64,000 nucleotides of DNA, taken from NCBI RefSeq assembly GCF_963921235.1, contig NC_086097.1, positions 101,868,001-101,932,000 of the forward strand. The letters run 5' to 3'. Origin of the DNA: Mobula hypostoma (taxonomy: Eukaryota). Position numbers and translations under genes: made by a program. Of the stretch, positions 11,101-63,497 are shown one piece after another. The notes below the pieces were generated by a model. The model searched no databases and was not told the origin of the DNA. It saw only the letters and a list, made by a program, of their open reading frames with translations. The first letter of the stretch is position 1; each line of letters starts with the position of its first letter.

Positions 11101-14100
11101 CCTTTCCTTTCAACCTAACAGGAACATAAAGATTCTGTACCCTCAAAATTTCACCTTTAAATGACCTCCATTTCTCTATTACATCCTTCCCATAAAACAA
11201 ATTGTCCCAATACACTCCTTCTAAATCCTTTTGCATCTCCTCAAAGTTAGCCTTTCTCCAATCAAAAATCTTAACCCTGGGTCCAGTCCTATCCTTCTCC
11301 ATAATTATATTGAAACTAATGGTATTGTGATCGCTGGACCCGAAGTGCTCCCCAACACAAACGTCCGTCACCTGCCCTATCTCATTTCCTAACAGGAGAT
11401 CCAACACTGCCCCTTCTCTAGTTGGTACCTCTATGTATTGCTGCAAAAAACTATCCTGCTCACATTTTACAAACTCCAAACCATCCAGCCCTTTTACAGA
11501 ATGGGCTTCCTAGTCTATGTGTGGAAAATTAAAATTCCCCACAATCACAACCTTGTGCTTACTACAAATATCTGCTATCTCCTTACAAATTTTCTCCTCC
11601 AATTCTTGCTCCCCATTAGATAGTCTATAATAGACCCCTATAAGCATCACTACACCTTTCCCATTCCTTCAATTCCACTCAAATAGCCTCCCTAGACGAG
11701 TTCTCTAATCTATCCTGCCAGAGCACTGCTGTTATATTTTCTCTGACAAGCAATGCAACACCTTCCCCTCTTGCCCCTCCGATTCTATCACACCTGAAGC
11801 AACGAAATCCAGGAATATTTAGTTGCCAATCACACCCCTCCTGCAACCATGTTTCACTAATAGCTACAACATCATATTTCCAGGTATCAATCCATGCTCT
11901 AAACTCATCCACCTTTCTTACAATGCTCCTTGCATTAAAATAAATGCATTTAAGAAACTCTCCACCTCTTACTCTCTGTTTATTCCGAATGGAGCAAACA
12001 ACTTTGTTATCTTTTTCTTCCTTCTCCCCTACGTCTTCGGTCTGAGTGCTCCCATTCTCTGTCCCCTGTCTATCCTCCCTCACACACTGTCTACTAGCTT
12101 TCTCTATTTGTGAACTAACCTCCTCTCTCCTAGTCTCTTTAATTTGATTCCCACCCCAACAACCATTCTAGTTAAAGTCTCCTCAGAAGCCTTCGCAAAT
12201 CTCCCTGCCAGGATATTGGTCCCCCTAGGATTCAAGTGTAACCCGTCCTTTTTGTACAGGTCACACCTGCACCAAAAGAGGTCCCAATGATCTAAAAACT
12301 TGAATCCCTGCTCTCTCTCCAATCCCTCAGCCATGCATTTATCCTCCACCTCATTGCATTCCTACTCTCACTGTCGCGTGGCCCAGGCAGTAATCCCGAG
12401 ATTACTACCTTTGCAGTCCTTTTTCTCAACTCCCTTCCTGACTCCCTATATTCTCCTTTCAGGACCTCTTCCCTTTTCCTACCTATGTCATTGGTACCTA
12501 TATGTACCACGACCTCTGGCTCCTCACCCTCCCACTTCAGGATATCTTGGACGTCATCAGAGACATCCAGGACCCTGGCACCAGGGAGGCAAACTACCAT
12601 CTGGCTCTCCTGACTGCGTCCACAGAATCGCCTATCTAACCCCTAACTATCGAGTACCCTATTACTACTGCCCTCCTCTTCCTTTCCCTACCCTTCTGAG
12701 CTACAGGGCCAGACTCTGTGCTGAAGGCACGGCCACTGTCTCTTCCCCCAGGTAGGCTGTCCCCCCCCCAACAGTACTCAAACAGGAGTACTTATTGTCA
12801 AGGGGTACAGCCACTGGGGTACTCTCTAGTACCTCACCCTTCCCCTTCCCCTTCCTAACTGTGGCCCAGTTATCTTCCTCCCATGGCCTCGGTGTGACCA
12901 CCTGCCTGTAACTCCTCTCTATCAACTCCTCACTCTCCCTGACCAGATGAAGGTCATCGGGCTGCAGCTCCAGTTCCCTAACATGGTCCCTTCGGTGCTG
13001 CATCTTGGCACACCTGGCGCAGATGTGGATGTCCAGGAGGCTAGGAGACTCCAGGACCTCCCACATCAACACCGAGAACAGCAAGCTGCCCTCACACTCA
13101 TACTTCCCCACCTTTCCTCAAATAACAGGAAAAATTGAAAACCAAACCTTCTTCACCTCGCCCATTTCCACCTAAGCCCATTGAGCCAAAGCCCTTAGGC
13201 CTTCACTCTGCTCCCGGCTCTCTCAGCAGCCTGCAATCTATGCTGCCCGCTGTATAAGGTTGTGTTCCTTTTAAATCTTCTGTGCTTCACTGCCCGACGT
13301 CACATGCCTGCGCAGTCCCGCCTCTCTTAACTCCAATGGAAAAAAAACCGGAAAATTCAAAATGGCTTCCGCCGCACTCCCGCTCCAATTCTCAGACTCC
13401 CTTCTCCGAATACATCCCAAAGAGGAAGAAGTATTCTAAAGTAAAGATGATCCAAACGTGGCTGACAAGAAAAGTCGAAGGCCAGATAAAAGCCAAAGAG
13501 AGGGCATATAATAGAGCAAAAATTAGTGAGACAATACAAGATTGGGAAGCTTTTAAAAACCAACAGAAGGCAACTAAAAAAGTCATTTAGGTAAAAATGG
13601 AATTCAAAAGTAAGCTCGCCAATAATATTAAAGAGGATCCCAGAAGTTTCTTCATATAAAATTTTTTTCTGTGTAAAAGAAAGGCGAGAGTGGATATTGG
13701 ACTGCTGGAAAGCGATGCCGGACAGGTAGTAATGGGGGACAATAAAATGGCAGATGAACTGAATAAGAGTTTTGCATCAGTCTTCACTGTGGAAGACACT
13801 AGCAGTATGGTAGAAGTTCCAGGTGTCAGGGGCCATGAAGCGTGTGAAGTTACCATAACTAGAAAGAAGGTTCTTAGGAAACTGAGAGATCTGAAGGTAG
13901 ATAAGTCACCTGGACCAGATGGTGTACACCCCAGAGTTTTGAAAAAGTTGGCTGAAGAGATTGTGGAGGATTAGTAATGATCTTTCAAGAATCACTAGAT
14001 TCTGGAATGGTTCCGGAAGACTGGAAAGTTGCAAATGTCACTCCACTCTTCAAGAAGGGAGAGAGGCAAAGACAGGAAACTGTAGGCCAGTTAGTCTGAC

Positions 14101-21074: not shown

Positions 21075-23540
21075 AAAAGGGGGGTGCAGAAGGAAAGAGG
21101 GAGAAGAGTGGAGCGGTACTGATAGGGGACTCAATTGTGAGGGGAACAGACTGGAGGTTCTGTGGACGTGAATGGGACACCTGGATGCTAAGATGCCTCC
21201 CAGGCGCCAGGGTCAGGGACGTCTCCGATCACGTCTGCAGCATTTTGGAGAGGGAGGGAGAGCAGCCAGATGTCTTGGTACATATTGGTACCAATGACAT
21301 AGGAAGGAAAAGCAATGAGGTCCTGAAAAGTGAATTTAGGGAACTAGACCGAAAGCTGAGAAGCAGGACCTTCAGGGTAGTAATTTCTGGATTGCTACCT
21401 GTGCCATGTGCCAGTGAGGGTAGAAACAGGATGATCTGGCAGGTAAATATGTGGCTGAGAAGCTGGTGGAGAGGGCAGAGCTTCCGGTTCTTGGATCATT
21501 GGGATCTCTTCCGGGGGAGGTATGACCTGTTCAAAAGTGATGGATTGCACCTGAACCCAAAGGGGACAAATATTCTTGCAGGCAGGTTTGTTAGAAATGT
21601 TGGGGAGGGATTAAACCAAATTAGTGGGGTGGGAGAGGTGAGAACCGGAGCAAAGGGACTCAGGATAGGACGGATGATAAAAAAGCAAAGATGGCGTGCG
21701 GTCAGACAGTCAGGAAGAGCAGGAAGGTGATAGGACACAATTACAGCCAGCAGGGTGAGTATCAGTGTATTAGGGATGCAGCATCAAAAAGGGTAGCAAA
21801 TGCAGTACTCAAAGTGTTATGTCTCAGTGTATGGAGTATAAGAAATAAGGTGGATGATCTTATTGCACTATTACAGATTGTGAGGTACAATGTTGTGGCC
21901 ATCACTGAATCATGGCTGAAGGATGGTTGTAGTTGGGAGCTGAATGTCCAAGGTTACATGTTGTACCAGAGGGATAGGAAGGTCGGCAGTGGGGGTGACG
22001 TGGCTCTGCTGGTAAAGAATGGCATCAAATCAGTAGAAAGATGTGAGATAGAATCAGAAGATGTTGAATCCTTGTGGGTTGAGTTAAGAAACAGCAAGGG
22101 TAAAAGGACCCTTCTGTCAGTCATATACAGGCCTCCCAACAGTAGCTGAGATGTGGACTACAGATTATGACGGGATATAGAAAGGCATGTCAAAAGGGTA
22201 ATGTTATGGTAGTCATGGGAGATATCAACATGCAGGTTGATTGGGAAAATCAGGCTGGTAATGGATCTCAAGAGTGTGGGTTTGTTGAATGTCTACAAAA
22301 TGGTTTTTTAGAGCAGTTTGTTGTTAAGCCTACTAATGGATCAGCTATACTGGATTGAGTGTTATTGTAATGAACCAGAGGTGATTTTGGAGCTTGAGGT
22401 AGAAGAACCCTAAAGAGGCAGTGATCACAATATGGGAGATTGAGTTCAACTTGGAATTTGATAGGGAGAAAGTAAAGTCTGATGTAGCAGTATTTCAGTG
22501 GAGTAAAGGAAATTACAGTGGTAAGAGAGAGAAGTTGGCCAAAGTAAATTGGAAGGAGCTGCAGGCATGGATGACAGCAGAGCTGCAATAGCGTGAATTT
22601 CTGGTAACAATGAGAAAGATACAAGATAGATGTATTCCAAAAATGAAAAAATACTCAAATAGCAAAATAGTACAACCATGGCTGACAAGGGAAGTCAAAG
22701 CTAATGTAAAAGCAAAAGAGAGGGCATACGACAAAGCAAAAATTTGCGGCAAGGTAGAGGACTGGGAAGCTTTTAAAACCCTATAGAGGACAACTAAAAG
22801 AATCATTAGGAGGGAAAGAATGAGATATGAAATCAAGCTAGCAAGCAATATCAAAGTGGATAGTAAAAGCTTTTTCCAAGTATGTAAAAAATAAGAGAGA
22901 TGAGAGTGGATCGCTAGCAATAGATGCCAGATGTTGAAGGGTGTGAGGGAAGAGGAGTGAGTACAGTTACTATTACAAAGGAGAAGGTGCTCAAAAAGCT
23001 GAAAGGCCTAAAGGTACATAAGTCACCCAGACCAGATGAACTGCACCCAAGGGTTCTGAAAGAGGTAGTAGTAGAGATTGTGGAGACATTAGAAATGATC
23101 TTTCAAAAATCATTGGACTCTGGTATTGTGATGGAAGATTGGTGGAGAGACAGATAGTGTTGAGGAAACAGGAAGGCTGCAGAAGAACTTAGACAGATTA
23201 GGAGAATAGGCAAGAGAGTAGCAAATGAAATAGAATGTCGGGAAATGCATCGTCATGCACTTTGGTAGTAGAGATAAATGTGCAGACGATTTTCTAAACA
23301 GGGAGAAAATCTAAAAATCTGAGGTGCAAAGGGACTTGGGAGTCCTTGTGCAGAACATCCTGAAGGTTAATTTGCAGGTTGAGTCGGTGGTGAGGAAGGC
23401 AAATGCTATGTTAGCATTCATTTCAAGAGGTCTAGAATACAAGAGCAAGGATGTGATGCTGAGGCTTTATAAGGCTGGTGAGGCCTTACCTCAAGTATTG
23501 TGATCAGTTTTGGGCTCCTTATCTACAAAATGTTTCCATC
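21075..23540 (+). mobile_element. Decayed CR1 LINE (esterase ORF1, EN, partial RT with internal deletion near 23140)
   Basis: ORF 21137-21730 (VLVHIGTND, DGLHLN), 21691-22149 (AITESWL, YRPPN), 22924-23157. Confidence 0.88.
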
Positions 23541-24810: not shown

Positions 24811-27800
24811 ATAGAACATAGAACAGTACAGCACATTACAGGCCCTTCGGCCCACAATGTTGTGCCGACCCTCAAATCCTGCCTCCCATATAACCCCCCA
24901 CCTTAAATTCCTCTATATACCTGTCTAGTACTCTCTTAAACTTCACTAGTATATCTGCCTCCACCACTGACTCAGGCAGTGCATTCCACGCACCAACCAC
25001 TCTCTGAGTGAAAAACCTTCCTCTAATATCCCCCTTGAACTTCCCACCCCTTACCTTAAAGCCATGTCCTCTTGTATTGAGCAGTGGTGCCCTGGGGAAG
25101 AGGCGCTGGCTGTCCACTCTATCTATTCCTCTTATTATCTTGTACACCTCTATCATGTCTCCTCTCATCCTCCTTCTCTCCAAAGAGTAAAGCCCTAGCT
25201 CCCTTAATCTCTGATCATAATCCATACTCTCTAAACCAGGCAGCATCCTGGTAAATCTCCTCTGTACCCTTTCCAATGCTTCCACATCCTTCCTATAGTG
25301 AGGTGACCAGAACTGGACACAGTACTCCAAGTGTGGCCTAACCAGAGCTTTATAGAGCTGCATCATTACATCGCGACTTTTAAACTCTATCCCTCGATTT
25401 ATGAAAGCTTACACCCCATAAGCTTTCTTAACTACCCTATCCACCTGTGAAGCAACTTTCAGGGATTTGTGGACATGTACCCCCAGATCTCTCTGCTCCT
25501 CCACACTACCAAGTATCCTGCCATTTAGTTTGTACTCTGCCTTGGAGTTTGTCATTCCAAAGTGCACCACCTCACACTTCTCCGGGTTGAACTCCATCTG
25601 TCACTTCTCAGCCCACTTCTGCATCCTATCAATGTCTCTCTGCAATCTTTGACAATCCTCTACACTATCTACAACACAACCAACCTTTGTGTCATCTGCA
25701 AACTTGCCAACCCACCCCTCTACCCCCACATCCAGGTCGTTAATAAAAATCATGAAAAGTAGAGGTCCCAGAACAGATCCTTGTGCGACACCACTAGTCA
25801 CAATCCTCCAATCTGAATGTACTCCCTCCACCATGACCCTCTGCCTTCTGCAGGCAAGCCAATTCTGAATCCACCTGGCCAAACTTCCCTGGATCCCATG
25901 CCTTCTGACTTTCTGAATAAGCCTACCATCTGGAACCTTGTCAAATGCCTTACTAAAATCCATATAGATCACATCCACTGCACTACCCTCATCTATATGC
26001 CTGGTCACCTCCTCAAAGAACTCTATCAGGCTTGTTAGACACGATCTGCCCTTCACAAAGCCATGCTGACTGTCCCTGATCAGACCATGATTCTCTAAAT
26101 GCCCAGAGATCCTATCTCTAAGAATCTTTTCCAACAGCTTTCCCACCACAGACGTAAGGCTCACTGGTCTATAATTACCCGGACTATCCCTACTACCTTT
26201 TTTGAACAAGGGGGCAACATTCACCTCCCTCCAATCCTCTGGTACCATTCCCGTGGACAACGAGGACATAAAGATCCTAGCCAGAGGCCAGCAATCTCTT
26301 CCCTCGCCTCATGGAGCAGCCTGTTGAATATTCCGTCAGGTCCCGGGGACTTATCCGTCCTAATGTATTTTAACAACTCCAACACCTCCTCTCCCTTAAT
26401 GTCAACATGCTCCAGAACATCAACCTCACTCATATTGTCCTCACCATCATCAAGTTCCCTCTCATTGGTGAATACCGAAGAGAAGTATTCATTGAGGACC
26501 TCGCTCACTTCCACAGCCTCCAGGCACATCTTCCCACCTTTATCTCCAAGTCATCCTTTTGTTCTTCACATAATTGAAGAATGCCTTGGGGTTTTCCTTT
26601 ACCCTACTCGCCAAGGCCTTCTCATGCTCCCTTCTTGCTCTTCTCAGCCCCTTCTTAAACTTCTTTCTTGCTTCCCTATATTCCCCAATAGAACCATCTG
26701 ATCCTTGCTTCCTAAACCTCATCCACCTTCTTCCACCTGACTAGATTTTCCACCTCACTTGTGACCCATGGTTCCTTCACCTCACCATTCTTTATCTTTC
26801 TCACCGGGACAAATTTATCCCTAACATCCTGCAAGAGATCTCTAAACATCAAGCGCATGTCCATAGTACATTTCCCTGCAAAAACATCATCCCAATTCAC
26901 ACCCGCAAGTTCTAGCCTTATAGCCTCAGAATTTACCCTACCCCAATTAAAAATTTTCCTGTCCTCTCTGATTCTATCCTTTTCCCAGATAATGCTAAAG
27001 GCCAGGGAGCGGTGGTCACTATCCCCCAGATGCTCACCCACTGAGAGATCTGTGACCTGACCCAGTTCATTACCTAGTACTAGATCTAGTATTGCATTCC
27101 CCCTAGTCGGAAACAACAGGAATTCCTGACAAAGGGTCTCAGCCTGAAACGTCGACTGCACCTCTTCCTAGAGATGCTGCCTGGCCTGCTGCGTTCACCA
27201 GCAACTTTTATGTGTGTTGCTTGAATTTCCAGCATCTGAGAATTCCTGTTGTTTGCCCCCTAGTCAGCCTGTCCACATACTGTGACAGGAATCCGTCCTG
27301 GACACACTTAACAAACTCTACCCATCTAAACCCTTGGAACTAATCAGGTGCCAATCAATAATAGGGAAGTTAAAGTCACCCATGATAACAACCCTGTTAT
27401 TTTTGCACCTTTCCAAAATCTGCCTCCCAATCTGCTCCTCTGTATCTCTGCTGCTACCAGGGGGTCTATAGAACACCCCCAATAGAGTAACTGCTCCCTT
27501 CCTGTTCCTGACTTCCACCCATACTGACTCAAAAGAGGATCCTATGACATTACCCACCCTTTCTGTAGCTGTAATAGTATCCCTGACCAGTAATGCTATC
27601 CCTCCTCCCCTTTTTCCCCCCTCTCTATCCCTTTTAAAGCACTGAAATCCAGGAATATTGAGAATCCATTCCTGCCCTGGTGCCAGCCAAGTCTCTGTAA
27701 TGGCCACTACATCATAATTCCATGTATGTATCCAAGCTCTCAGTTCATCACCTTTGTTCCTGATGCTTCTCGCATTGAGGTACACACATTTCAGCCCTTC

Positions 27801-28610
27801 TGCCTTACTGTCTTTACACCGTTTATTCTGCTTCTCTTTCCTCAAAGCCTCTCTATATGTTAGATCTGGCTTTACTAAATGCACTTCTTTCACTGCTCTA
27901 TCTCTCTGGGTCCCATCCCCCTCGCAAATTAGTTTAAACCCTCCCGAACCATGCTAGCAAACCTACCAACAAGGATATTGCTCCCCCTCGAGTTCAGGTG
28001 CAACCCATCCAATCTGTACAGGTCCCACCTTCCCCAGAAGAGATCCCAATGATCCAAATATCTAAAACCCTGCTCCCTGCACCAACTCCTCAGCCACGCA
28101 TTCAACTGCCATCTCCTCCAATTCTTACCATCACTGTCACGTAGCACTGGCAGCAATCCTGAGAACGCCACCCTTGAGGTCCTGTTCTTCAGCCTTCTGC
28201 CTAGTTCCCAAAACTCACACTTCAGGACCTCATCCCTCTTCCTGCCTATGTTGTTGGTACCAACATGTATCACGACTTCTGGTTGCTTTCCCTCACGTAC
28301 CAGGATGTTGTGCACCTAGTCAGAGACATCCTGGACCCTGGCACCCGGGAGGCAACAAACCGTGCGGGTGTCCTTCTCACGTCCACAAAATCTCCTGTCT
28401 GCTCCCCTGTCTATAGAGTCTCCAATGACGACAGCTCTCCTCTTCTCCGTCCCACCCTTCTGCATCACCAGGTCAGACTCAGTGCCGGAGGCCCTGCCAC
28501 CGTGGCTCACACCTGGTCGGTCGTCCCCGCCAACAGTATCCAGGACGGTTAACTTATTATTCAGGGGAATGGCTACAGGGGTGCTCTGCACTACCTGTCT
28601 GCTCACCTTC
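24811..28610 (-). mobile_element. 5'-truncated CR1 LINE (esterase ORF1 + EN-RT ORF2)
   Basis: ORFs 28316-28612 (VIGDS), 27929-28315, 27318-27893, 25601-26269 (FADD), 24872-25366; tail ATAGAACATAGAAC. Confidence 0.92.
27111..27255 (+). mobile_element. 145-bp Penelope-derived miniature element with 15-bp terminal inverted repeats and a hammerhead motif
   Basis: TIR aaacaacaggaattc (27111-27125)/gaattcctgttgttt (27240-27254); TSD ccccctagtc(g/a)g at 27099-27110 and 27256-27267; body matches the 3' end at 63089-63217. Confidence 0.85.
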
Positions 28611-29579: not shown

Positions 29580-30100
29580 CAGAAAGTTGAAAGTAAATTG
29601 GTTATCAATGTACATACAGTACATACCTATCACCAAATGCAACCCTCAGATTGATTTTCTTACAGGTATCAGTAAATACCAGAAACATAATGGACTCAAT
29701 GAAAGACTGCCCCTACAGGACAAAGAACCAACATGCAAAAATCATCAAACTGGGCAAATACAAGAAGAAAAAGAGAGAAAAATAAATAAATAAACAATAA
29801 ATGTTGAGAGCAAGAGGTGAAGTCCTTGAAAGTGAGTCCATAGGTGGTGGGAAGTGAAGTTACCCAGTCCGGATCATGAGCCTGATGGTTGAGGGGTGAT
29901 AACTGTTCCTGAGCCTGGTGGTGTGAGTCCTGAGGCTCCTGTACCTCCTTCCTGATGGCAGCAGTGAGAAGAGAGCTGCTTTCCTGCAACAGCTCAATGG
30001 TGGGATGGGTTTTACCAAGATGAACTGGGCCATATCAACTACTTTTTGTAGGCTTTTCTGTACAAGGGCATTGGTGTTTCCATACCAAGCGTGATCACAG
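29580..30100 (-). mobile_element. Rex1/Babar-type LINE 3' end
   Basis: AWYGNT..LQKVV..FSLLPSGRRYRSLRTHTTRLRNSYHPSTIRL. Confidence 0.75.
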
Positions 30101-30310
30101 TGTGCAAACACCACACACAGCACCAGGGGTAAGGATTGAACCTGTGTCAGAAGAGATGTGAGACAGTGACTCGACTTAGCTGTGCCACCTTGATTGACTG
30201 AATTCATATTCACAAATGTTGGAAATCAATATTGAGTGGGAGAAGCACAGGAGATGCTGACCAAACGCAGTGGGGGAGCTCAGCATCTATGGAGGGAAAT
30301 GAATGGTCTG

Positions 30311-30825
30311 CATTTCAGGTCAAGCCTCTTCGTCTGGACATTTCAGGTCAAGCCTCTTCGTCTGAACATTTCAGGTCAAGCCTAATCGTCTGGACATTTC
30401 AGGTCAAGCCTCTTCGTCTGAACATTTCAGGTCAAGCCTCTTCGTCTGGACATTTCAGTTCAAGCCTCTTCGTCTGAACATTTCAGGTCAAGCCTCTTCG
30501 TCTGGACATTTCAGTTCAAGCCTCTTCGTCTGGACATTTCAGGTCAAGCCTCTTCGTCTGGACATTTCAGGACAAGCCTAATCGTCTGGACATTTCAGGT
30601 CAAGCCTCTTTGTCTGGACATTTCAGGTCAAGCCTCTTCGTCTGGACATTTCAGGACAAGTCTCTTCGTCTGGACATTTCAGGACAAGCCTAATCGTCTG
30701 GACATTTCAGGACAAGCCTCTTTGTCTGGACATTTCAGGTCAAGCCTCTTCGTCTGGACATTTCAGGACAAGCCTCTTCGTCTGGACATTTCAGGACAAG
30801 CCTCTTCGTCTGGACATTTCAGGTC
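30311..30825 (-). repeat. 28-bp tandem repeat x18 (+ partial), unit derived from the hammerhead ribozyme core
   Basis: Unit catttcaggtcaagcctcttcgtctgga; on - it reads CAGACGA-agaggcttgacct-GAAATGTC, versus CTGACGA-agggtctcggcct-GAAACGTC at 63089-63116. Confidence 0.9.
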
Positions 30826-31023
30826 TTCGAAGAATTTGAAAAACATCCACTGTCCATTTTCCCCCACTGATGCTGCCTGACCATGAAGTTGCTCCAGCAT
30901 GTTGCATGGCAGTGACACCTGGTCTCTCACACAGAGCTGGAGTTTCTGCCTGTGATGTCCGTGCTGAACATGATGCCAAATTAAACTAATCCCTTTTGCC
31001 TGTGTACGATCCATATCTCACCT

Positions 31024-31430
31024 CAACAAAACATTCTGGGGGAACTCAGTGGGTTAGGCTGCATCGGCGGAGGGAAATGGGGAGACAAGACCCTTCATCA
31101 GGTCTGAAAGATTGAGGGTAAATTGGATAGAGTGGAGATGCAACAGATTCCAGGTGCCAGGTGGATACATGTGAGGGCAGGTGGGGGAGGGATGATTGGG
31201 AATGGCATCAGAAGCCAGGAGATGATAGGTGGAGGTGTCAAAGCGCTGAAGGTGGTGGAATCTGATAGGAGAGGAAGGTGGAGCACAGAATAAAAGGAGG
31301 GTGTTGCGGATGGCAGGGGGGAACAGTGGGGGAGTGTCTGGGTGATAGACAGATAAAGAGGGTGAGGAAAGGAAAGCGGCATGCTGATTGGTGCTGGGGT
31401 GGATTGAGAGAAAATAGATTGGACATGGCC
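31024..31430 (-). mobile_element. Degenerate Penelope-like pseudo-LTR
   Basis: acaaaacattctgggggaactcag...gacccttcatcagg followed by a GA-rich body like that of other copies. Confidence 0.6.
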
Positions 31431-37789: not shown

Positions 37790-40700
37790 TCTGCCATAAG
37801 GGAATAAGACACGGCAGGTGACAGCAGTTGTCAGAAGTAGGGAAACACTTTGCATCTAGAGGTCACAATGCCATTAGTTTCAAAATAAATATGCAAAAAG
37901 ATAGGCTGGGTCCATGGATTGAGATTCTAAATTGGAGAAAGGCCAATTTTGATGATATCAGAAATGATCTGGCAAGTGTGGATTGGGACAGGCTGTTTTC
38001 TGGCAAAGCTGTACTTGGTAAGTGGGAGGTCTTCAAAAATGAAACTTTGAGAGTATAAATCTTGTACGTGACTGTCAGAATAAAAGGTAAAGACAACAGG
38101 TGCAGGAACCTTGGACTTTCAAGAAAGATTGAGGCCCTGGTTAAGAGAACAAAGAAGGCGCATAGCAGGTATGGTTGGCATCAGTCTGTCTCAAAAGAAT
38201 GAGTGATGTTCATCACAAGCCTGGATGGAAGGTATGGAGATCCTGAGATGTCCAGTCGTCAAGATCCCCCTCTCGGCCTCACCAGTGTAGTTCAAAGGAA
38301 AGCTTATGAAGCAATACATTTGGCACCAGCTCAGCTGCAGGAGCTGCTGGAAGGCTGTTCAATGACATCCAACTGCCTTAGGGGCTCCACTCTGGATTTG
38401 CTGTCTGTGCTTACTCCCGTAGACTTTTGTCACTCCTGAAGCTACCTACAAGGCAGTGGGGCTACTTACCCGTAGCTAGGGAGCAGGTATAGACAGGTAG
38501 GAACACATGAGCTGCTTATGGAGTATAAGAAATGCAAGAGAACGCTTAAGAGAGAAATCAGGAGGGCTAAAAGAAGGCTTGGGGTTGCCCTAGCAGACAG
38601 GTGCTAGAGAATCCCAAGGATTTCCACAGATATGTTGAGCACAAGGATTGCAAGAGAGAAAATTTGTCCTCTGGAAGATGATAATGGTAATGCATGCAAA
38701 AAGCCAGAACAGATGGGGGAGATCTTAAATGCATTCTTTGCATCTGTATTGACCCAGAGATGGAATAGACACAGAAGTGAGGTAAAGTGGCGTCCACTTC
38801 AAGGAGCCAGTACAGATTGCAGAGGAGGAGGTGGTTGCCATTCTGAGGCAAATCAGGGTGGATAAATCCCAAGACCTGACAAGGTGTTCTCTCAGACCCT
38901 ATGGGAGACAAGTGCAGAAATTGCCAGGGCCCCAGCAGAGATATTTAAATCATCCTTAGCAAAAGGAGAGGTATCACAGGAATGGAGGATAGCCAAGGTT
39001 GTTCTGCCATTTGAAAAAGGCTCTGAACATAAACCAGCAAATTATAGGCTGGAGAGTCTGACATCAGTTGTGGGAAAATTATTGGAAGGTATTCTAGGGG
39101 ACCAGATGGATATATAAGTATTAGAATAGACATAGACTGATTAAAGATAGTCAGTATGGCTGTGTGCATGGTAGGTCATGTCTAACTAATCTTATAGAGT
39201 TTTTCAAGGAAGTTCCTAGGAAAGTGGATGAAAGTAAGGCAGTAAATGTTGTCTACATGGACTTAGAAACCATAGAAAAACTACAGCACAGAAACAGGCC
39301 TTTTGGCCCTTCTTGGCTATGCCGAACCATTTTCTGCCTAGTCCCACTGACCTGCACACGGACCATATCCCTCCATACACCTCCCATCCATGTATCTGTC
39401 CAATTTATTCTTAAATGTTAAAAGTGAGCCCACAATTACCATCTCATCTAGCAGCTCATTCCATACTCCCACCACTCTCTGTGTGAAGAAGCCCCCCGCT
39501 AATATTCCCTTTAAACTTTTCCCCCCCTCACCCTTAACCCATGTCCTCTGGTTTTTTTCTCCCCTTGCCTCAGTAGAAAAAGCCTGCTTGCATTCACTCT
39601 ATCTATACCCATCATAATTTTATATACCTCTATCAAATCTCCCCTCATTCTTCTACGCTCCAGGGAATAAAGTCCTAACCTATTCAACCTTTCTCCGTAT
39701 CTGAGTTTCTCAAGTCCTGGCAACATCCTTGTAAACCTTCTCTGCACTCTTTCAACCTTATTTATATCCTTCCTGTAATTTGGTGACCAAAACTGAACAC
39801 AATACTCCAGATTCGGCCTCACCAATGCCTTATACAACCTCATCATAACATTCCAGCTCTTATACTCAATACTTCGATTAATAAAGGCCAATGTACCAAA
39901 AGCTCTCTATACAACCCTATCTACTTGTGACGCCACTTTTGGGGAATTTTGTATCTGTATTCCCAGATCCCTCTGTTCTACTGCACTCCTCAGTGCCTTA
40001 CCATTAACCCTGTATGTTTTACCTTGGTTTGTCCTTCCAACATGCAATACCTCACACTTGTCTGTATTAAACTCCATCTGCCATTTTTCAGCCCATTTTT
40101 CCAGCTGGTCCAAGTCCTGCTGCAGGCTCTGAAAACCTTCCTCACAGTCTACTACATCTCCAATCTTTGTATCATCAGCAAATTTGCTGATCCAATTTAC
40201 CACATTGTCATCCAGATCATTGATATAGATGACAAATAAAAATGGACCCAGCACTGATCCCTGTGGCACACCACTAGTCACAGGCCTCCACTCGGAGAAG
40301 CAATTCTCTGCTACCACTCTTTGGCTTCTTCCATTGAGCCAATGTCTAATCCAATTTACCACCTCTCCATGTATACCTAGTGACTGAATTTTCCTAACTA
40401 ACCTCCCATGGGGGACCTTGTCAAAGGCCTTACTGAAGTCCATGTAGACAATATCCGCTGCCTTCCCTTCATCCACTTTCCTGGTAACCTCCTCGAAAAA
40501 CTCCCGATAGATTGGTCAAACATGACCTACCATGCACAAAGCCATGTTGACTCTCCCTAATAAGTCCCTGTCTATCCAAATACTTGTAGATTCTGTCTCT
40601 TAGTACTCCCTCCAATAACTTACCTACTACCGACGTTAAACTTACTGGCCTATAATTTCCCGGATTACTATTCGATCCTTTTTTAAACAACAGAACAACA

Positions 40701-43690
40701 TGAGCCACTCTCCAATTCTCTGGCACCTCACCTGTAGACAGCAACATTTTAAACATTTCTGCCAGGGCCACCGCAATTTCAACACTAGTCTCCTTCAAGA
40801 TCCGAGGGAACATCCTGTCAGGTCCCGGGGATTTGTCCACTTTAATTTTCCTCAAGACAGCAAGCACCTCCTCCTTTTCAATCTGTACAGTTTCCATGAT
40901 CTCACTACTTGTTTCCCTTAATTCCATAGACTTCATGCCAGTTTCCTTAGTAAATACAGATGCAAAAAACCTATTTAAGATCTCCCCCATTTCCTTTGGT
41001 TCCGCACATAGCAGACCACTCTGATCTTCAAGAGGACCAATTTTATCCCTTACAATCCTTTTGCTCTTAATATACTTGTAAAAGCTCTTTGGATTATCCT
41101 TCACTTTGACCGCCAAGGCAACCTCATGTCTTCTTTTAGCCTTCCTGCTTTCTTTCTTAAGTATTTTCTTGCACTTCTTATACTCCTCAAGCACCTTATT
41201 TACTCCCTGTTTCCTATACATGTCATACAACTCCCTCTTGTTCTCTATAAGAGTTGCAATATCCCTTGAGAACCAAGGTTCCTTATTCCTATTCACTTTG
41301 CCTTTAATCCTGACAGGAACATACAAACTCTGAACTCTCAAAATTTCTCCTTTGAAGGCTTCCCACCTACCGATCACATCTTTGCCAGAGAACAATCTGT
41401 CCCAATCCATGCTTTTTAGATCCTTTCTCATTTCTTCAAATTTGGCCTTCTTCCAGTTCAGAACCTCAACCCTAGGACCAGATCTATCCTTGTCCATGAT
41501 CAAGTTGAAACTAATGGTGTTAATGATCACTGGAACCAAAGTGCTCCCCTACACAGACTTCCGTCACTTGTCCTAACTCGTTTCCTAACAGGAGATCCAA
41601 TATTGCATCCCCTCTAGTTGGTCCCTCTATGTATTGATTTAGAAACCTTTCCTGAACACATTTTACAAACTAAACCATCTAGACCCCTAACAGTATGGGA
41701 GTCCCAATCAATATATGGAAAATTAAAATCCCCTACCACCACAACTTTATGTTTCCTGCAGTTGCCTGCTGTCTCTCTGCAGATTTGCTCTTCCAATTCT
41801 CGTTGACTATTGGGTGGTCTGTAATACAATCCCACTAATGTGGCCATACCTTTCCTGTTTCTCAGCTCCACCCATAAGGACTCAGTAGACAAGCCCTCTA
41901 ATCTGTCCTGCCTGAGCACTGCTGTGATATTTTCCCTAACAAGCAATGCTACTCCCCCACCTTTCATTTCTCTGCCTCGATCACATCTGAAAGATCGGAA
42001 CCCTGGAATATTAAGCTGCCAGTCCTGCCCCTCCTGTAGCCAAGTTTCACTAATTGCTATAACGTCATAATTCCACGTGTCAATCCACGCCCTCAACTCG
42101 TCTGCCTTCCCCGCAATACTCCTAGCATTGAAATATATACACCTCAGAAGATTTTTACCACCACTCACAACCTTTCTATTAGCGGATTTGCTTGAACTTT
42201 TAACATCATTTATTTTCACCCCAGCCACACTGTCAGCTCTGGCACCCTGGTTCCCATCCCCCTGCAAATCTAGTTTAAAACCTCCGCAATAGCACTAACA
42301 AACCTCCCTGAAAGGATATTGGTCCCCCTGTAGTTCAAGTGTAACTCGTGTCTCTTGTACAGGTCCCACCTGCCCCAGAAGAGGTTCCAATTATGCTGAA
42401 ATCTGAAACCCTGCCCCCTACACCAGGTCCTCAGCCACTTGTTCATCCTCCAGAGCATCCTATTCTTACCCTCACTGGCACGTAGCACAGGTAGCAATCC
42501 TGAGATTACCACCCTTGAGGTCCTGCTTTTCAACTTCCTACCAAGCTCTTTATACTCACTCTCCAGGACCTCCTCACTCTTCCTTGCTATGTCATTGGTA
42601 CTGATGTGCACCATGACATCTGGCTGGTCACCCTCCCACTTCAGAATGTCATGCAATCGATCAGAGACATCCTTGACCATGGCACCTGGGAGGCAACAAA
42701 CCATCCTGGATTCTCTGTCACGACCACAGAACCTCCTATCTGCACCTCTAACTATCGAGTCCCCTATCACTACTGCTCTCCTCTTTTTCCACCCTCCCTT
42801 CTGCACTGTAGAGCCAGACTCAGTGCCAGAGATCCGGCTACTGCAGCTAGTCCCAGGTAAGTCATCCCCCCCAACAGTATCCAATGCGGTATACTTGTTG
42901 TTGAGGGGAATGGCCACAGGGGAACCCTGCTCTGCCTGCCCTTTCCTCTTCCCTCACCTGACAGTGACCCAATTTCCTGTCCTCTGCTCCTTTGTCATAA
43001 CTACCTCCCTGTAGCTACTATCTATAATCTCCTCATTCTCCTGAATGATCCGCAAGTCATCCAGCTCCTGCTGACTTTAGTAAGACATATGATGAGGTTC
43101 AGTGGCTCAGCATTCAGGATGATGTAGTAAATTGGATTAGACATTGGCTTTGCGGGAGAAGCCAGAGAGTGGTAGTAGATGGTTGCCTCTCTGACTGGAG
43201 GCTCGTGACTAGTGAGGTGCTGTGGGGATCGGTGCTGGGTCTCTCGTTGTTTGTCGTCTATATCAATGATCTGGATGATAATGTGGTTAACTAGACCAGC
43301 AAATTTGCAGAAAAAAACAAGATTGGGGGTGTAGTGGACAGTGAGGAAGGCAATGAAGGCTTGCAGAGGGATCTGCATCAGCTAGAAAAATGGACTGAAA
43401 ATTGGCAGATGGCAATTAATGCAGACATGCAAGATTTTGCACTTCGGTAGGACCAACCAGGGTCGGTCTTACACAGTGAATGGTAGGACACCGAGGAATG
43501 TGGTAGAACAAAGGGATCTGTGAATACAGGTCCATAATTCATTGAAAGTGGCATCACAGGTAGATAAGGCCATAAAGAAAGCTGTTGGCACACTGGCCTT
43601 CGTAGATTATAGTACTGAGCGCAGGAGATGGGCTGTTATGTTGCAGTTGTAGAAGACTTTAGTGAGGCCTAATTGGAGTATTGTATACAA
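37790..43690 (+). mobile_element. Decayed CR1 ORF2 host, interrupted by the CR1 at ~39265-43072
   Basis: ILNWRKANF, HGRSCLTNLIEFF..VVYMD| resuming FSK.. at ~43076; duplicated gactt(t)ag at the junctions. Confidence 0.85.
39265..43072 (-). mobile_element. CR1 LINE, 5'-truncated within ORF1; ORF2 nearly complete with few frameshifts
   Basis: ORFs 42270-42917 (VIGDS esterase), 41614-42267 (EN), 40469-41539, 39907-40476 (FADD), 39511-39891. Confidence 0.93.
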
Positions 43691-49499: not shown

Positions 49500-50663
49500 G
49501 GGCCATGGGCTGTCCGTACTTTCAGAGAGGGGAGTGTAGGCGAGGGTGTCGAATTGTGGGGTCATGGGCCGTCCGTACTTTCAGAGAGGGGAGTGTAGGC
49601 GAGGGTGCCAAATTACAGGGCCATGGGCCGTCCATACTTTCAGAGAGGGGAGTGTAGGCGAGGGTGCCAAATTACAGGGCCATAGGCCATCCGTACTTTC
49701 AGAGAGGGGAGTGTAGGCGAGGGTGCCTAATTACAGGGCCATGGGCCGTCCGTACTTTCAGAGAGGGGAGTGTAGGCGAGGGTGTCGAATTGTGGTGTCA
49801 TGGGCCGTCCGTACTTTCAGAGAGGGGAGTGTAGGCGAGGGTGCCGAATTACAGGGCCATGGGCCATCCGTACTTTCAGAGAGGGGAGTGTAGGCGAGGG
49901 TGCCAAATTACAGGGCCATGGGCCGTCCGTACTTTCAGAGAGGGGAGTGTAGGCGAGGGTGCCAAATTACAGGGCCATGGGCCGTCCGTACTTTCAGAGA
50001 GGGGAGTGTAGGCGAGGGTGTCGAATTGTGGGGTCATGGGCCGTCCGTACTTTCAGAGAGGGGAGTGTAGGCGAGGGTGCCAAATTACAGGGCCATGGGC
50101 CTTCCGTACTTTCAGAGAGGGGAGTGTAGGCGAGGGTGTCGAATTGTGGGGTCATGGGCCGTCCGTACTTTCAGAGAGGGGAGTGTAGGCGAGGGTGCCA
50201 AATTACAGGGCCATGGGCCATCCGTACTTTCAGAGAGGGGAGTGTAGGCGAGGGTGCCAAATTACAGGGCCATGGGCCGTCCGTACTTTCAGAGAGGGGA
50301 GTGTAAGCGAGGGTGTCGAATTGTGGGGTCATGGGCCGTCCATACTTTCAGAGAGGGGAGTGTAGGCGAGGGTGCCAAATTACAGGGCCATGGGCCATCC
50401 GTACTTTCAGAGAGGGGAGTGTAGGCGAGGGTGTCGAATTGTGGGGTCATGGGCCGTCCATACTTTCAGAGAGGGGAGTGTAGGCGAGGGTGTCGAATTG
50501 TGGGGTCATGGGCCGTCCATACTTTCAGAGAGGGGAGTGTAGGCGAGGGTGTCGAATTGTGGGGTCATGGGCCGTCCATACTTTCAGAGAGGGGAGTGTA
50601 GGCGAGGGTGTCGAATTGTGGGGTCATGGGCCGTCCATACTTTCAGAGAGGGGAGTGTAGGCG
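49500..50663 (+). repeat. 59-bp minisatellite, ~19-20 copies, within the PNMA-like gag
   Basis: ccatgggccgtccgtactttcagagaggggagtgtaggcgagggtg(ccaaattacaggg|tcgaattgtggggt). Confidence 0.95.
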
Positions 50664-52309
50664 AGGGTGCTGAATTACAAGTCTAGTTTTCCATAGCCAA
50701 GGGCGGAAACTTTAAAGACAAGTTGCTCTAGTTTCAGCGAGTGGGGGGAAGGAGCTGTCTGATGTGAAAGGTCCACTGAGTCCTTCAGCTTTTGATTTAA
50801 ACTGAGCTCGTTTTGGTTATTACATCACTGGTTGATAAATGCTGAAGTACATCTGCGGAGAACCGAAGTTATTGTAGGCTGGGAGTGATCTCTGGGGTCA
50901 AGCCCACACCCAGTGGGGAAGAAGAATAGGAGGTTTGGACTAAGCAGGCATCTCAGTTATCAGATGAATGGCAGTGCTCGGATAATATGGAAAAACTGAC
51001 GCTGGTAGAGAGATGAAAGGGGACGGTGACTGATAGAGTGAGGTTGCTCAAGGCAGAAAACCCATTAGCTGTGTCAGCTAATTACCTGCAAGCTCTGCTG
51101 GAAGTGCAGCCGATCTTAGGAAGGAGTTAAGGCTCACATTTCAGGAGGAAATAGAGAAGCTGCCTGCCTACATTTTCAGGTTGGAGGAGCTGCTACACTG
51201 TTTGTGCCACAAAGGGGGCATTCAACTGTCTGAGAGAAATTGCTTGAGGATGGAGCAAGCTGTGAAGAGTGTGTTGTAATGTGGAGTAATTGCTCTGCAT
51301 ATTCGAATGACCCACAGGATACGTCCTCCTTCCCTTACTGAGTTACTCAGAGAAGTTGGAGAGGAGGAAAACGCGATAGTGGAGCTGGAGGCTTCGGTTA
51401 GCAGGGCAAATTCATCGGTAGTAGCTGCTGTTGCTGAAGCGACCCCTGATGTCCAACAGGCGGGGGTTTTACAGGATTTGTGAAAGATTTGAGAGCAGAG
51501 GTATCCCGGTTGATATCAGTGGATGCTGTCACCAAGCATGACAAGGCCGATAGGGAGCCGGACCCACTGATGAACGTGCTAAGCAGACGGCTGCTACTGA
51601 ACAGGGTCCTTGACCAGGGAAGTGACCAATATTTACTGTTACAGCTGTGGAGAAGATGGACATTTCAAGCAGGAGTGTGAAGGAAATTAAAATTTTTGAA
51701 AATTAAATCAGCGATGAATCAAGCAGTGAAAAAAGAGGTAAAACTACGGAGGGACCCAGCAAAGGAACAGGCTGATGTTTCGGAGAGGATACGTTCCTAT
51801 CAGTGTATCAAAGGAAATAGTCAAGTACAGAACACTATTCCTGGAGGTTTAGTGGGACCAAGCTCTGATGTATCCATACGGATTGAAGGCGTTTATGCTA
51901 GAGCCATACTTGACACAGGTTCTCGAGTAACTTTGTTTTATCGATCCTTTTACAACTGGTTTTTGACACATTTACCAATGACGCCACTCAGTGCCCTTGC
52001 AATTCTGATGGTTGGTGCTGATGAGTACCATTGCGATGGCCACTTGGAGCATGCAAGGAGAGGAATGGAGAGAACTATTTGAACACCTTATCCATTCACC
52101 GTGTCCAGAGCAGCTTTCGAGAAGGTGCGAGCTTTTCTTAAGCAGGATGATGAGTATAAATGAGGAACTGTGTGGTACGGCCAGTCTAAACCCGTCATGT
52201 TATGTCGTGGAGGAGGAGCCAGAGTGGAAGCAACCCCAGAATTTGATGGAATGTCCAAGGAATGGAAAAGTTGATTAATTGAGAAGGTGCTGGGACGCGA
52301 AGAAACGTT

Positions 52310-60932: not shown

Positions 60933-61695
60933 TACATTCTGCTGTATCCTTTGCAAGGCCTCCACACTGTTATTTGCTCCCTCTCCCTATTCATGTTTTG
61001 TTTCCAGCCTTGACTATTGGATTCATTCCTTGTCAATGATCATGAATACATCACACAGTCCCTTTACACAGTCTGCTGCATTTTTGAAAAAAGTAATTTA
61101 TAAAGTTTATTGTTGTGTAGGAGTGGTCCCACATTGTTCAGTCATAAAACTTCTGAATGTTGTTGGAAAAAATAATCTTATGGTCAAGTGTCATTTTCTC
61201 ATGAGATGAAGAAAAAAATTTCTCACTCTTAACAAGTGAATGTCCCATTATTTTTTACAAAGGCATACTTTATTCTGTTTCAAGGCTAATGTCCAATTGG
61301 GAGGAAAATGTTCCTGTATTCAAGATTGTTTAATGTTATTTTTGGTACATGACTGTAAAAGAGAATGAAATAATTGTCACTCCAGATCTTAATAGCACAA
61401 AAAAACACTAAGATAAAGAACACAATAACAAAATAACACACTAAATATAAATGTGTAAAATAGCTTATATACATTGATTGTATGTCCATAAAGTGACACT
61501 AGGCACAGGAGTGTCTGTACATAAGGTGACTGACAGCAAAACGATAAAGTGGTGGGGGTGTGGGGGTGTGGAGGTGTGGGTTAGTGGGTGGAGGTGTTGA
61601 CCAGTCTTACTGCTTGAGGAAGCTAGCTATTTGTGACATACATCAAAGTTGCTGGTGAACGCAGCAGGCCAAGCAGCATCTGTAGGAAGAGGTGC

Positions 61696-61731
61696 AGTCG
61701 ACGTTTCAGGCCGAGACCCTTCGTCAGGACT
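61696..61731 (-). ncRNA. Minimal type I hammerhead ribozyme (identical to 63085-63120)
   Basis: Reverse complement of agtcgacgtttcaggccgagacccttcgtcaggact. Confidence 0.85.
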
Positions 61732-63084
61732 AACTGAAGGAAGAGTGAGTAAGGGATTTGAAAGTTGGAGGGGGAGATCCAAAATGATAGGAGAAGACAG
61801 GAGGGGGAGGGATAGAGCCGAGAGCTGGACAGTTGATTGGAAAAGAGGATATGAGAGGATCATGGGACAGGAGGTCTGGGAAGAAAGACGGGGGGGGGCA
61901 ACCCAGAGGATGGGCAAGAGGTATATTCAGAGGGACAGAGGGAGAAAAAGGAGAGTGAGAGAAAGAATGTGTGCATAAAAATAAGTAACAGATGGGGTAT
62001 GAGGGGGAGGTGGGGCCTTAGTGGAAGTTAGAGAAGTCAATGTTCATGCCATCAGGTTGGAGGCTACCCAGACGGAATATAAGGTGTTGTTCCTCCAACC
62101 TGAGTGTGGCTTCATCTTTACAGTAGAGGAGGCCGTGGATAGACATGTCAGAATGGAAATGGGATGTGGAATTAAAATGTGTGGCCACTGGGACATCCCG
62201 CTTTCTCTGGCGGACAGAGCGTAGATGTTCAGCAAAGCGGTCTCCCAGTCTGCGTCGGGTCTCGCCAATATATAAAAGGCCACATCGGGAGCACCGGACG
62301 CAGTATATCACCCCAGTCGACTCACAGGTGAAGTGATGCCTCACTTGGAAGGACTGTTTGGGGCCCTGAATGGTGGTAAGGGAGGAAGTGTGAGGGCATG
62401 TGTAGCACTTGTTCCGCTTACACGGATAAGTGCCAGGAGGGAGATCAGTGGGGAGGGATGGGGGGGACGAATGGACAAGGGAGCTGTGTAGGGAGCGATC
62501 CCTGCGGAATGCAGAGAGAGGGGGGGAAGGAAAGATGTGCTTAGTGGTGGAATCCTGTTGGAGGTGGTGGAAGTTACGGAGAATAATATGTTGGACCTGG
62601 AGGCTGGTGGGGTGGTAGGTGAGGACCAGGGGAACCCTATTCCTAGTGGGGTGGTGGGAGGATGGAGTGAGAGCAGATGTACGCGAAATGGGGGAGATGC
62701 GTTTAAGAGCAGAGTTGATAGTGGAGGAAGGGAAGCCCCTTTCTTTAAAAAAGGAAATTTTGGCATGAACATCGACTTCTCTAACTTCCGCTAAGGCCCC
62801 ACCTCCCCCTCGTACCCCATCTGTTACTCATTTTTATGCACACATTCTTTCTCTCACTCTCCTTTTTCTCCCTCTGTCCCTCTGAATATACCTCTTGCCC
62901 ACCCTCTGGGTCACCCCCCCCCTTTGTCTTTCTTCCCAGACCTCCTGTCCTATGATCCTCTCGTATCCCCTTTTGCCTATCACCTGTCCAGCTCTCGGCT
63001 CTATCCCTCCCCCTCCTGTCTTCTCCTATCATTTTGGATCTCCCCCTCCAACTTTCAAATCCCTTACTCACTCTTCCTTCAGTT

Positions 63085-63120
63085 AGTCCTGACGAAGGGT
63101 CTCGGCCTGAAACGTCGACT
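63085..63120 (+). ncRNA. Minimal type I hammerhead ribozyme (predicted cleavage after GUC at 63116)
   Basis: agtc-CTGACGA-agg-gtctcgg-cct-GAAAC-GTC-gact: complete conserved core, stems I and II paired, palindromic ACGT mini stem III. Confidence 0.85.
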
Positions 63121-63497
63121 GCACCTCTTCCTACAGATGCTGCTTGGCCTGCTGCGATCACCAGCGACTTTGATGTATGTTGCTTGAATTTCCAGCATCT
63201 GCAGAATTCCTGTTGTTAACTATTTGTGAGTCTGGTGGCCCTGGTGTGGATGCTACATAGCCTCCTCCCTGATGGGAGTGGGACAAACAGTCCATGACTA
63301 GGGTGTGTGGGATCCTTCATGATATTACTGGGCTTTTTCTGGCACCTTTCCGTATAAATGTCCTTGATGGCAGGTAGGCTGCTGCTGGTGATGTGTTGGG
63401 CAGTTTTGACTAGTCGTTGTAGAGCCTTCCTGTCCACTGTAGTGCAGTTTCCACACCATGCAATGATACAGCTTGTTATGATGTTCTCTCTACTGCA

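Follow-up and report, generated by a model that had tools for sequence, protein, structure and literature searches.

The subject of this report is a tandem array of 28-nucleotide (nt) units in a 64,000-nt stretch of the Mobula hypostoma genome (contig NC_086097.1, hereafter the window), whose units resemble the core of a hammerhead ribozyme (HHR). We think it very probable that the array is a minisatellite derived from a transposable element (TE), in which the 28-nt minimal HHR module at the inner arm end of an old, inverted-arm mini-element of the Penelope-like element (PLE) type was multiplied 18-fold, and that it likely has no ribozyme activity. Tandem Repeats Finder (TRF) delimited the array to 30311-30825, with a period of 28, 18.4 copies, 93% matches and 0% indels. 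When the minus strand was read in an exact 28-nt register (30309-30812), 18 units were found with no more than three mismatches from CAGACGAAGAGGCTTGACCTGAAATGTC, whereas none was expected from 100 shuffles. The 18 units of exactly equal length that were named in the original prediction are thus confirmed, and so is their alignment without gaps to the HHR motif at 63089-63116, with which the majority unit shares 22 of 28 positions. GAAA is present in 18 of 18 units, and the cleavage triplet reads GTC in 14, GTT in three and GCA in one. The 5' strand of the core is CAGACGA in 16 of the 18 units and CAGACAA (G8 to A) in the other two, with A at position 4 throughout. The array is, by these properties, a minisatellite: its units of between 10 and 100 base pairs (bp) stand head to tail and show the variant structure typical of unequal exchange.

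The origin of the unit was examined by searching the last unit of the array, together with its left flank, against the window's own genome (3.48 Gb, 200 contigs). The search returned 49 matches, from which 29 single-copy relatives were extracted, in which the module is likewise continued by the family's arm sequence (...GAAATG-TC/CT/CA-GAC-...TTCATTTCCCTCCATAGATGCTG...). When aligned with MAFFT, 12 of the single-copy relatives are collinear with the terminal unit and its flank, without gaps, and the array unit is identical at 27 of 28 positions to the single-copy core of one of them, L052. These matches support the derivation of the unit from the hammerhead module of this family. The sequence to the right of the array (plus strand, from about 30829) aligns to nine relatives in the opposite orientation, and it aligns as well to the left side, both as an inverted repeat, I1 (30281-30301 and 30855-30875; 21 nt, 81% complementary), and in a longer gapped alignment (about 30233-30333 versus 30828-30933). 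That the two arms are collinear with relatives in opposite orientations and can be aligned to each other argues that the locus is one old two-armed PLE mini-element, the array forming the inner end of its left arm, where the HHR lies. The original prediction had placed the array between inverted arms; the arms exist, but the array is a part of the left one and no separate insert. The partial unit at the inner end of the array abuts the palindrome CTTCGAAG, and the right arm starts with GAAGAATTTGA-AAAACATC|CACTG, at G8 of the HHR core, lacks 4 nt of helix II, and is firmly homologous to its relatives to about 30909. The positions of these features are given in Table 1.

Table 1. Parts of the two-armed mini-element that holds the array, and the PLE copy used for comparison
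Feature	Position in the window	Strand	Remarks
Outer part of left arm	30233..30308	-	Sense copy; holds the family's post-cleavage-site sequence CAGACCATTCATTTCCCTCCATAGATGCTGAGCTCC...; ungapped with 12 single-copy relatives; arm-to-arm alignment; inverted repeat I1
Eighteen full 28-nt units, amplified minimal HHR module of left arm	30309..30812	-	CAGACGA-AGAGGCTTGACCT-GAAAT-GTC
Partial unit GACCTGAAATGTC, inner array end	30813..30825	-	Read from sequence
Joint of both arms, palindrome CTTCGAAG	30825..30832	.	Read from sequence; crossover placed only approximately
Right arm	30829..30933	+	Sense copy, 5'-truncated inside HHR core; alignment with nine single-copy relatives; arm-to-arm alignment; I1
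Comparator 5'-truncated PLE copy, outside the array	61636..63250	-	Inverted arm with HHR 63089-63116 (+), open reading frame fragment 62018-62827 (-), sense HHR 61700-61727 (-)

An adjacent inverted, 5'-truncated copy that forms inverted repeats has been described for PLE insertions (Craig et al. 2021, PMC8557442, available text), and it is present at the array locus. The family itself was characterized from a copy in the same window that carries the young form of this HHR. The pattern CTGANGA-N(8-20)-GAAACGTC has two matches in the window (0.01 expected), at 61700-61727 on the minus strand and at 63089-63116 on the plus strand. These two HHR copies lie, inverted, on both sides of an open reading frame (ORF) fragment (62018-62827, minus strand) that matches the GIY-YIG domain weakly (E = 3.5e-4; 21.3 bits, below the Pfam cut-off of 22.6). 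The fragment has 14 longer homologues that are up to 60% identical, the best two (60% and 54%) being named from two shark species. In Pfam searches, the homologue P0007 reached 38.6 bits for RVT_1 (cut-off 29.6) and 20.8 bits for GIY-YIG (cut-off 22.6), and the homologue P0004 27.7 and 22.6 bits, respectively, against the same cut-offs. The assignment to a Penelope-type element made in the original prediction is, therefore, supported, in that the ORF flanked by members of this HHR family matches GIY-YIG weakly and has homologues that combine RVT_1 with weak or borderline GIY-YIG. The architecture fits a PLE, with GIY-YIG scores that are weak to borderline, and the older subfamily of the array would be linked to it through HHR and arm homology only. 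A BLAST search of the window with the copy at 63060-63250 found seven places, and the flanks of the array, which belong to the older subfamily, were not among them.

The original prediction laid weight on the unit boundary, which it placed at the cleavage site. At the readable end of the array (...GAAATG|CAGACCATTCATTTCCC) the last unit is followed directly by family sequence, which continues as CAGACCATTC..., where the relatives have TCGACCATTC, CTGAC... or CAGAC.... Inside the array the junction reads ...ATGTC|CAGA, which agrees with the 3' end of a single copy (...GAAATGTC) as well as with its 5' start (AGTC|CAGA). Two copies of GTC stand 28 nt apart in the family, one ending the 5' strand of helix I and the other forming the cleavage triplet. 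Because the crossover lies inside the GTC that is carried twice, a boundary at the cleavage site is indistinguishable from a 3-nt microhomology; the register of such a tandem array is arbitrary, and the boundary would be defined only to within 3 nt. The junction is thus compatible with the register that was proposed, but this register is not singled out over the microhomology, and slippage on a GTC repeated 28 nt apart, which the same prediction had offered as an option, fits the junction. We also considered whether CAGACGA came about by chance, through fusion of the CAGAC that follows the cleavage site to the GAAGAGG of an arm truncated at G8, and rejected this reading: that register needs a 26-nt period with a 2-nt insertion, and the relatives carry AGTCCAGATGAAGAGG as a single copy.

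The order of variants along the array bears on how it grew. Units 5 and 6 (U5-U6) equal U7-U8, a block of 56 bp, and U10-U11 are echoed by U14-U15, at a distance of 112 bp. Individual variants are shared likewise: TT in U3, U10 and U14, A6 in U11 and U15, A18 in U6 and U8, and T28 in U3, U5 and U7. Unit identity is 0.949 at a lag of 112, compared with 0.926 at a lag of 28. Since variants are shared in blocks of 56 and 112 bp, duplication continued after point mutations had arisen, a pattern that fits growth at the DNA level by slippage or unequal exchange. With respect to age, contigs of organism B (run X5) cover the left edge (30053-30361, four differences), an inner piece (30542-30641, none) and the right edge (30797-30984, three differences), and independent contigs of organism A cover 30060-30340 and 30794-30991 without a difference. 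Given that organism B has both edges and an inner piece, the array is older than the split between organisms A and B. No piece was found on the unique flanks of the array at 85% likeness in organism C (run X10). One could envision an assembly artefact behind the array or its copy number, considering that no contig of the four runs spans it. We regard this as extremely unlikely, because the edges and inner pieces recur in independent contigs of organisms A and B and because the units carry ordered, non-random variants.

Whether the units could act as ribozymes was judged from motif, fold and database models. Rfam returned no hammerhead at gathering score in the whole window, and at E<=10 the segments 30150-31000 and 63000-63220 had chance matches to snoRNA and sRNA models and no hammerhead. 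This test is weak, as the motif-intact copy at 63089 was equally unmatched and the Rfam models are ill-suited to minimal HHRs. The copy at 63089 had been called an intact hammerhead; it is one by motif, but has no Rfam hammerhead match, there or anywhere in the window, so that the term is based on the motif and on what has been published about minimal HHRs, which have no helix III (PMC4209133, available text).

The array units retain G12-A13-A14 and the N-U-H triplet, and they lack the 5' strand of the hammerhead core, C3-U4-G5-A6-N7-G8-A9, position 4 being A in 18 of 18. A change of the core U4 is known from classical mutagenesis to abolish hammerhead activity. The U4-to-A change is found in 10 of the 29 single-copy relatives as well (one more is ambiguous) and, therefore, predates the array, whose progenitor was likely a dead ribozyme already. 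Helix I is absent: ...AUGUC stands 5' of C3 and CAGAC... 3' of C17, which puts C opposite C at positions 1.1/2.1. Helix II can be drawn by eye as no more than three AGG/CCU pairs closing a loop of 5 nt, and it is unused in the free fold of three units, for which the predicted energy is -18.4 kcal/mol, as compared with -18.7 +/- 3.0 for shuffled sequences (z = 0.09). Because A4 is present in every unit, helix I is absent, the fold is no better than that of shuffles, and even intact minimal HHRs cleave poorly and as dimers alone (PMC4209133, available text), the array is probably incapable of self-cleavage. On this point our analysis agrees with the original prediction, which had taken the array as probably inactive in cis, with U4 changed to A and stem I lacking: U4 is replaced in all 18 units and helix I cannot form.

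These results also bear on the possibility that the array is a functional RNA locus, either a retrozyme-like ribozyme tandem that gives rise to small or circular RNAs, or a source of antisense or decoy transcripts that pair with PLE RNAs. The array does persist in organism B, and run X9, which was guessed to be RNA, has two low-depth contigs, at 30570-30711 within the array and at 30805-31081 to its right. We did not count these as expression, since X9 may hold DNA or intronic reads. The mutated core position 4 in 18 of 18 units, the missing helix I, and the lack of an Rfam match and of a fold beyond that of shuffles all speak against such a function, as do the uniqueness of the array in the assembly and its 28-nt unit, compared with 51-972 bp for the retrozyme consensus (preprint 10.64898/2026.07.22.740005, available text). 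A functional RNA locus is, in our judgment, highly improbable.

To place the array among its relatives, we turned to a census of HHR modules in the genome. The 28-nt minimal HHR pattern has at least 72,197 exact matches genome-wide and the control has none, and the array sequence has no match in the genome other than itself. For the spacer-free junction GAAAYGTCCWGAYGA there are 107 occurrences, versus 44 for the reversed control; 13 of the former are in the array, and among the 100 of the 107 places that were listed there is no second cluster. Seventeen non-array loci with this junction were read, and most proved to be 5'-truncated copies with a chance GAAAT upstream; in L020, L021, L023 and L024 a partial HHR ending in GAAACGTC is joined to CTGAYGA, beside an antisense arm. 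Two successive HHR-HHR junctions with spacers of 0-30 nt gave 40 matches (control, 0), 15 of them in the array and 25 in 17 other loci. These 17 other multi-unit arrays have periods of 35-54 nt; TRF, run on 16 of the loci, reported periods of 36, 37, 38, 39, 40, 43 and 51-54 nt with 2.5-13.4 copies. Further HHR arrays have 2.9 copies of 26 nt, 46 of 42 nt, 4.0 of 40 nt and 3.9 of 53 nt. The 28-nt array is, hence, neither the shortest in period nor the largest among the HHR arrays of the genome. The original prediction had called for a search for tandem 28-nt cores at other loci with junctions always at the GUC, and had held that a sole array, with varied breakpoints elsewhere, would count against it. 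The latter is largely what was found: there is no second run among the places listed, and the 17 arrays with periods of 35-54 nt have varied junctions.

L127 (G000:C2:15837772-15839702) is the largest HHR-derived array that we met in the genome. This satellite extends over 1.9 kb and holds 46 copies of a 42-nt unit (86% matches), an HHR module that has helix I but an altered core (CCTGCCGA...GAAACGTCGACTGTAC). Minisatellites have also arisen from the non-ribozyme arm of the PLE family, one of at least ten 37-nt units (G000:C9:189968989-189969333) and one of at least seven 35-nt units (G000:C40:125582264-125582485).

Near-complete dimers with a spacer of 0-9 nt have 47 matches, ten in the array and 37 in 32 other loci; in only two of the latter loci is the spacer 0, which makes a 28-nt two-unit tandem. 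With spacers of 10-30 nt there are 111 matches, nine in the array and 102 elsewhere, 91 of which were listed, in 82 loci. The junction seen most often is GACTG|CAGTC (10 listed loci), which corresponds to the outer end of helix I, and many joins use CTCTTCCT, which is common to the sequences upstream and downstream of the HHR. The view that a cleavage-site boundary is meaningful finds no support in these loci, since junctions are diverse in the roughly 114 dimer loci and about 18 of them end at GTC. Duplication was also compared between the HHR and the arm. A 12-mer anchor in the HHR is tandemly duplicated in 238 of 142,985 occurrences and a 12-mer anchor in the arm, about 37 nt downstream, in 110 of 200,474 (periods 28-58), a threefold difference and no all-or-none contrast.

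In at least 10 loci the dimer junction is GTC-GACTGCAGTC-CTGACGA (e.g. G000 C1:96583794, C2:43706110, C5:18958573, C71:8411647). Here the helix I strands of neighboring HHRs are joined as a palindrome, which may mark either a transposing two-HHR subfamily or a favored switch site.

The census allows a further hypothesis to be weighed, namely that the whole array was made in one retrotransposition step, the PLE reverse transcriptase (RT) having copied a 28-nt RNA, ribozyme-cut or circularized, in a reiterative or rolling manner, with every unit ending at the cleavage site as a result. An end after GUC agrees with the junction, PLE RTs are sister to telomerase (PMC8557442, available text), young insertions with identical tandem units at the joint exist (e.g. 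L067, with 5.1 units at 100% identity), and the upstream unit ends at GTC in the fraction of listed dimer loci given above. Nevertheless, we consider one-step copying very unlikely. Variants shared in 56- and 112-bp blocks imply duplication after point mutations; A4 is present in every unit and in 10 of 29 relatives, so that the template would be a core-mutated ribozyme; and a unit from C3 to C17 without helix I could not excise itself at both ends. Moreover, other arrays have periods of 26 to 54 nt and other junctions, and HHR cleavage was unneeded for PLE insertion in vitro, where no reads ended at the cleavage site (PMC11167929, available text). The original prediction had named reverse transcription of a ribozyme-cut RNA as one of its two options, and this option is not supported, given the block-shared variants, the presence of A4 in the relatives, and the fact that the non-ribozyme arm is duplicated as well.

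If the array is instead a minisatellite that grew at the DNA level, then the question is what produced the first duplication. The loci that were inspected share a layout: a target-site duplication, the antisense arm, the joint, tandem HHR units, the sense arm to the 3' end of the element, and the target-site duplication again. Antisense-arm motifs lie within 130 nt upstream of the first core in 14 of 16 arrays, compared with 10 of 44 unselected cores (Fisher p = 8.6e-6); by eye, a fifteenth array (L070) has a diverged antisense arm. The unselected cores came from the first 40 places of the minimal HHR census (L086-L125, G000:C1, first 2 Mb), and both sets were scored by one script. In 25 of the 44 unselected cores the natural upstream sequence continues for at least 100 nt, as judged by eye. 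The loci L082 (1.9 units) and L083 (2.8 units) have the same 28-nt, spacer-free junction as the array, at joints of young insertions with target-site duplications; in these two relatives and in L071 and L126 the target-site duplications are 13-15 bp long. L067, too, is a young insertion. The 28-nt array conforms to this pattern, its partial unit lying against the palindrome CTTCGAAG at 30825-30832. From the 14 of 16 arrays at joints, against 10 of 44 cores, we infer that formation of the two-armed joint accompanies or causes the first duplication.

We propose the following course of events. The element would have been inserted with priming on both DNA strands, so that two mirror-image arms met at the HHR; cutting and extension of both DNA strands by a PLE protein, with HHR cleavage dispensable, have been described (Frangieh et al. 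2024, PMC11167929, available text). A first duplication of 1.5-3 units would then have arisen at the joint, either by a short-homology template switch of the RT or by slippage on the palindromic joint, and replication slippage or unequal exchange, including that of 56- and 112-bp blocks, would have brought the array to 18.4 units. One could go further and suppose that the Penelope RT stutters on its own hammerhead: having copied the HHR domain closed by helix I, it would switch back over the base of the stem and copy the domain once more, thereby seeding short arrays at two-armed joints; the 28-nt array would then be a GUC/GUC seed that later grew as DNA. We put this forward only tentatively, as a possible but rather doubtful step. 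If it is true, the approximately 150 HHR dimers and arrays in the genome record template-switch sites of PLEs and make the integration step testable.

Several observations weigh against the reading of the array as a minisatellite that started from a 3-nt microhomology at the joint and grew as DNA. The terminal unit has GCA where the inner units have GTC, and the progenitor may, thus, have had no second GTC (GAAATGCAGAC occurs as a single copy in L042); the microhomology would then be 1 nt and not 3. In about 18 of the 114 listed dimer loci (read by eye) GTC forms the exact end of the upstream unit, a number above that expected if the ends were spread evenly over 0-30 nt. The roughly threefold excess of duplication of the HHR over the arm means that something about the HHR, or about its closeness to the joint, does favor duplication. 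For the seeding step, RT template switching at insertion and later DNA slippage on the palindrome predict the same junction. No target-site duplication of the array's own element is recognizable by eye at about 30233 and about 30933. Finally, the copy number is that of the assembly only, and the contigs of all four short-read runs break at the array edges.

Other joints in the family take different forms. The two-armed mini-element L126 (G000:C22:3694190-3694264) is young and has a target-site duplication of 13 bp (GTAAAATTTTGCA); at its joint lie 2.9 units of 25-26 nt (ACGAAGGGTCTCGGCCTGAAAYGTC), a period below 28 nt, the units again ending at GTC. L089, L109 and L125 are symmetrical hairpin insertions, both arms of which read through the HHR into about 20-40 nt upstream and meet at a short spacer. 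In the window itself, positions 27110-27255 hold a minimal PLE mini-element in which C3 of the HHR follows immediately on an antisense arm of 15 nt (AAACAACAGGAATTC); its sense arm runs to ...GAATTCCTGTTGTTT, and it has flanking CCCCTAGTC(G/A)G repeats.

The single copies of the family agree well with the minimal HHRs described in PLEs (Cervera and de la Pena 2014, PMC4209133, available text): they share CUGAYGA, the unpaired A before helix II, GAAA and GUC, have no helix III beyond the palindromic ACGU and a helix I of 4-5 bp, and are often paired on opposite strands 100-700 bp apart. The array unit differs from these in its A at position 4 and its lack of helix I, and a spacer-free tandem of bare cores is not described in the available text of that paper. 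The array locus, likewise, resembles PLE insertions with an inverted 5'-truncated copy in that mirror-image arms with outward 3' ends meet in the middle of the element; unlike them, it has short-period tandems at the joint, which the available texts (PMC8557442, PMC11167929) do not mention.

Hammerhead-containing satellites occur in newts, schistosomes and crickets. The array is like these animal hammerhead satellites, and like non-LTR (long terminal repeat) retrozymes, in having tandem repeats with a type I hammerhead motif, related to the pseudo-LTRs of PLEs. Non-LTR retrozymes of animals are the subject of Cervera and de la Pena (2020, PMC7229834). Retrozyme units, however, are 51-972 bp long (Li et al. 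2026 preprint, 10.64898/2026.07.22.740005, available text), are complete, with helix I, and belong to multi-copy mobile families, whereas the array is a single locus with an incomplete unit of 28 bp. Non-LTR retrozymes have a complete type I HHR in each unit and form a multi-copy mobile family that gives rise to circular RNA; the array has neither helix I nor U4 and is found at one place. The same preprint, in its available text, presents a model for TE-derived minisatellites, in which a tandem duplication inside an interspersed repeat is followed by unequal exchange. The array matches such minisatellites in its 28-bp unit, repeated head to tail in a decayed transposon, its higher-order blocks of variants and its single locus, and departs from others of the kind in that the unit is a ribozyme core with a built-in GTC...GTC at an inverted-arm joint. 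A search of the literature on Penelope-like and hammerhead tandems and on minisatellites, which covered mostly titles and the openings of abstracts, found no description of a spacer-free minisatellite of HHR cores. We conclude that the array is an ordinary TE-derived minisatellite and not a ribozyme satellite, and that its apparent cleavage-site phasing comes from the built-in 3-nt repeat.

The array itself is of little consequence, being one more minisatellite born inside a transposon. The census is of use to the PLE field: tandem HHR repeats are rare, about 1.7 per 1000 amid more than 72,000 modules, their junctions are varied, and they lie almost always at inverted-arm joints, which suggests the integration step, or the palindrome that it leaves, as their source. 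It also counsels caution, in that short tandem hammerhead motifs in vertebrate genomes should not be taken for retrozymes.

The window holds other repeats. An 18-bp minisatellite (ACCTCCAAACCCGTACAG; 134.7 copies, 91% matches) occupies 3252-5676 and is the reason for the long stop-free frames at 2742-5875, and a 59-bp tandem repeat of 20 copies (92% matches) lies at 49500-50679. Decayed ORFs of non-LTR retrotransposons, with RVT_1, Exo_endo_phos and GDSL-lipase/OSK-like domains, are found on the minus strand at 9693-12167, 25601-27953, 39907-42953 and 56398-57663; the sole exception on the plus strand is a GDSL fragment at 21077-21730.

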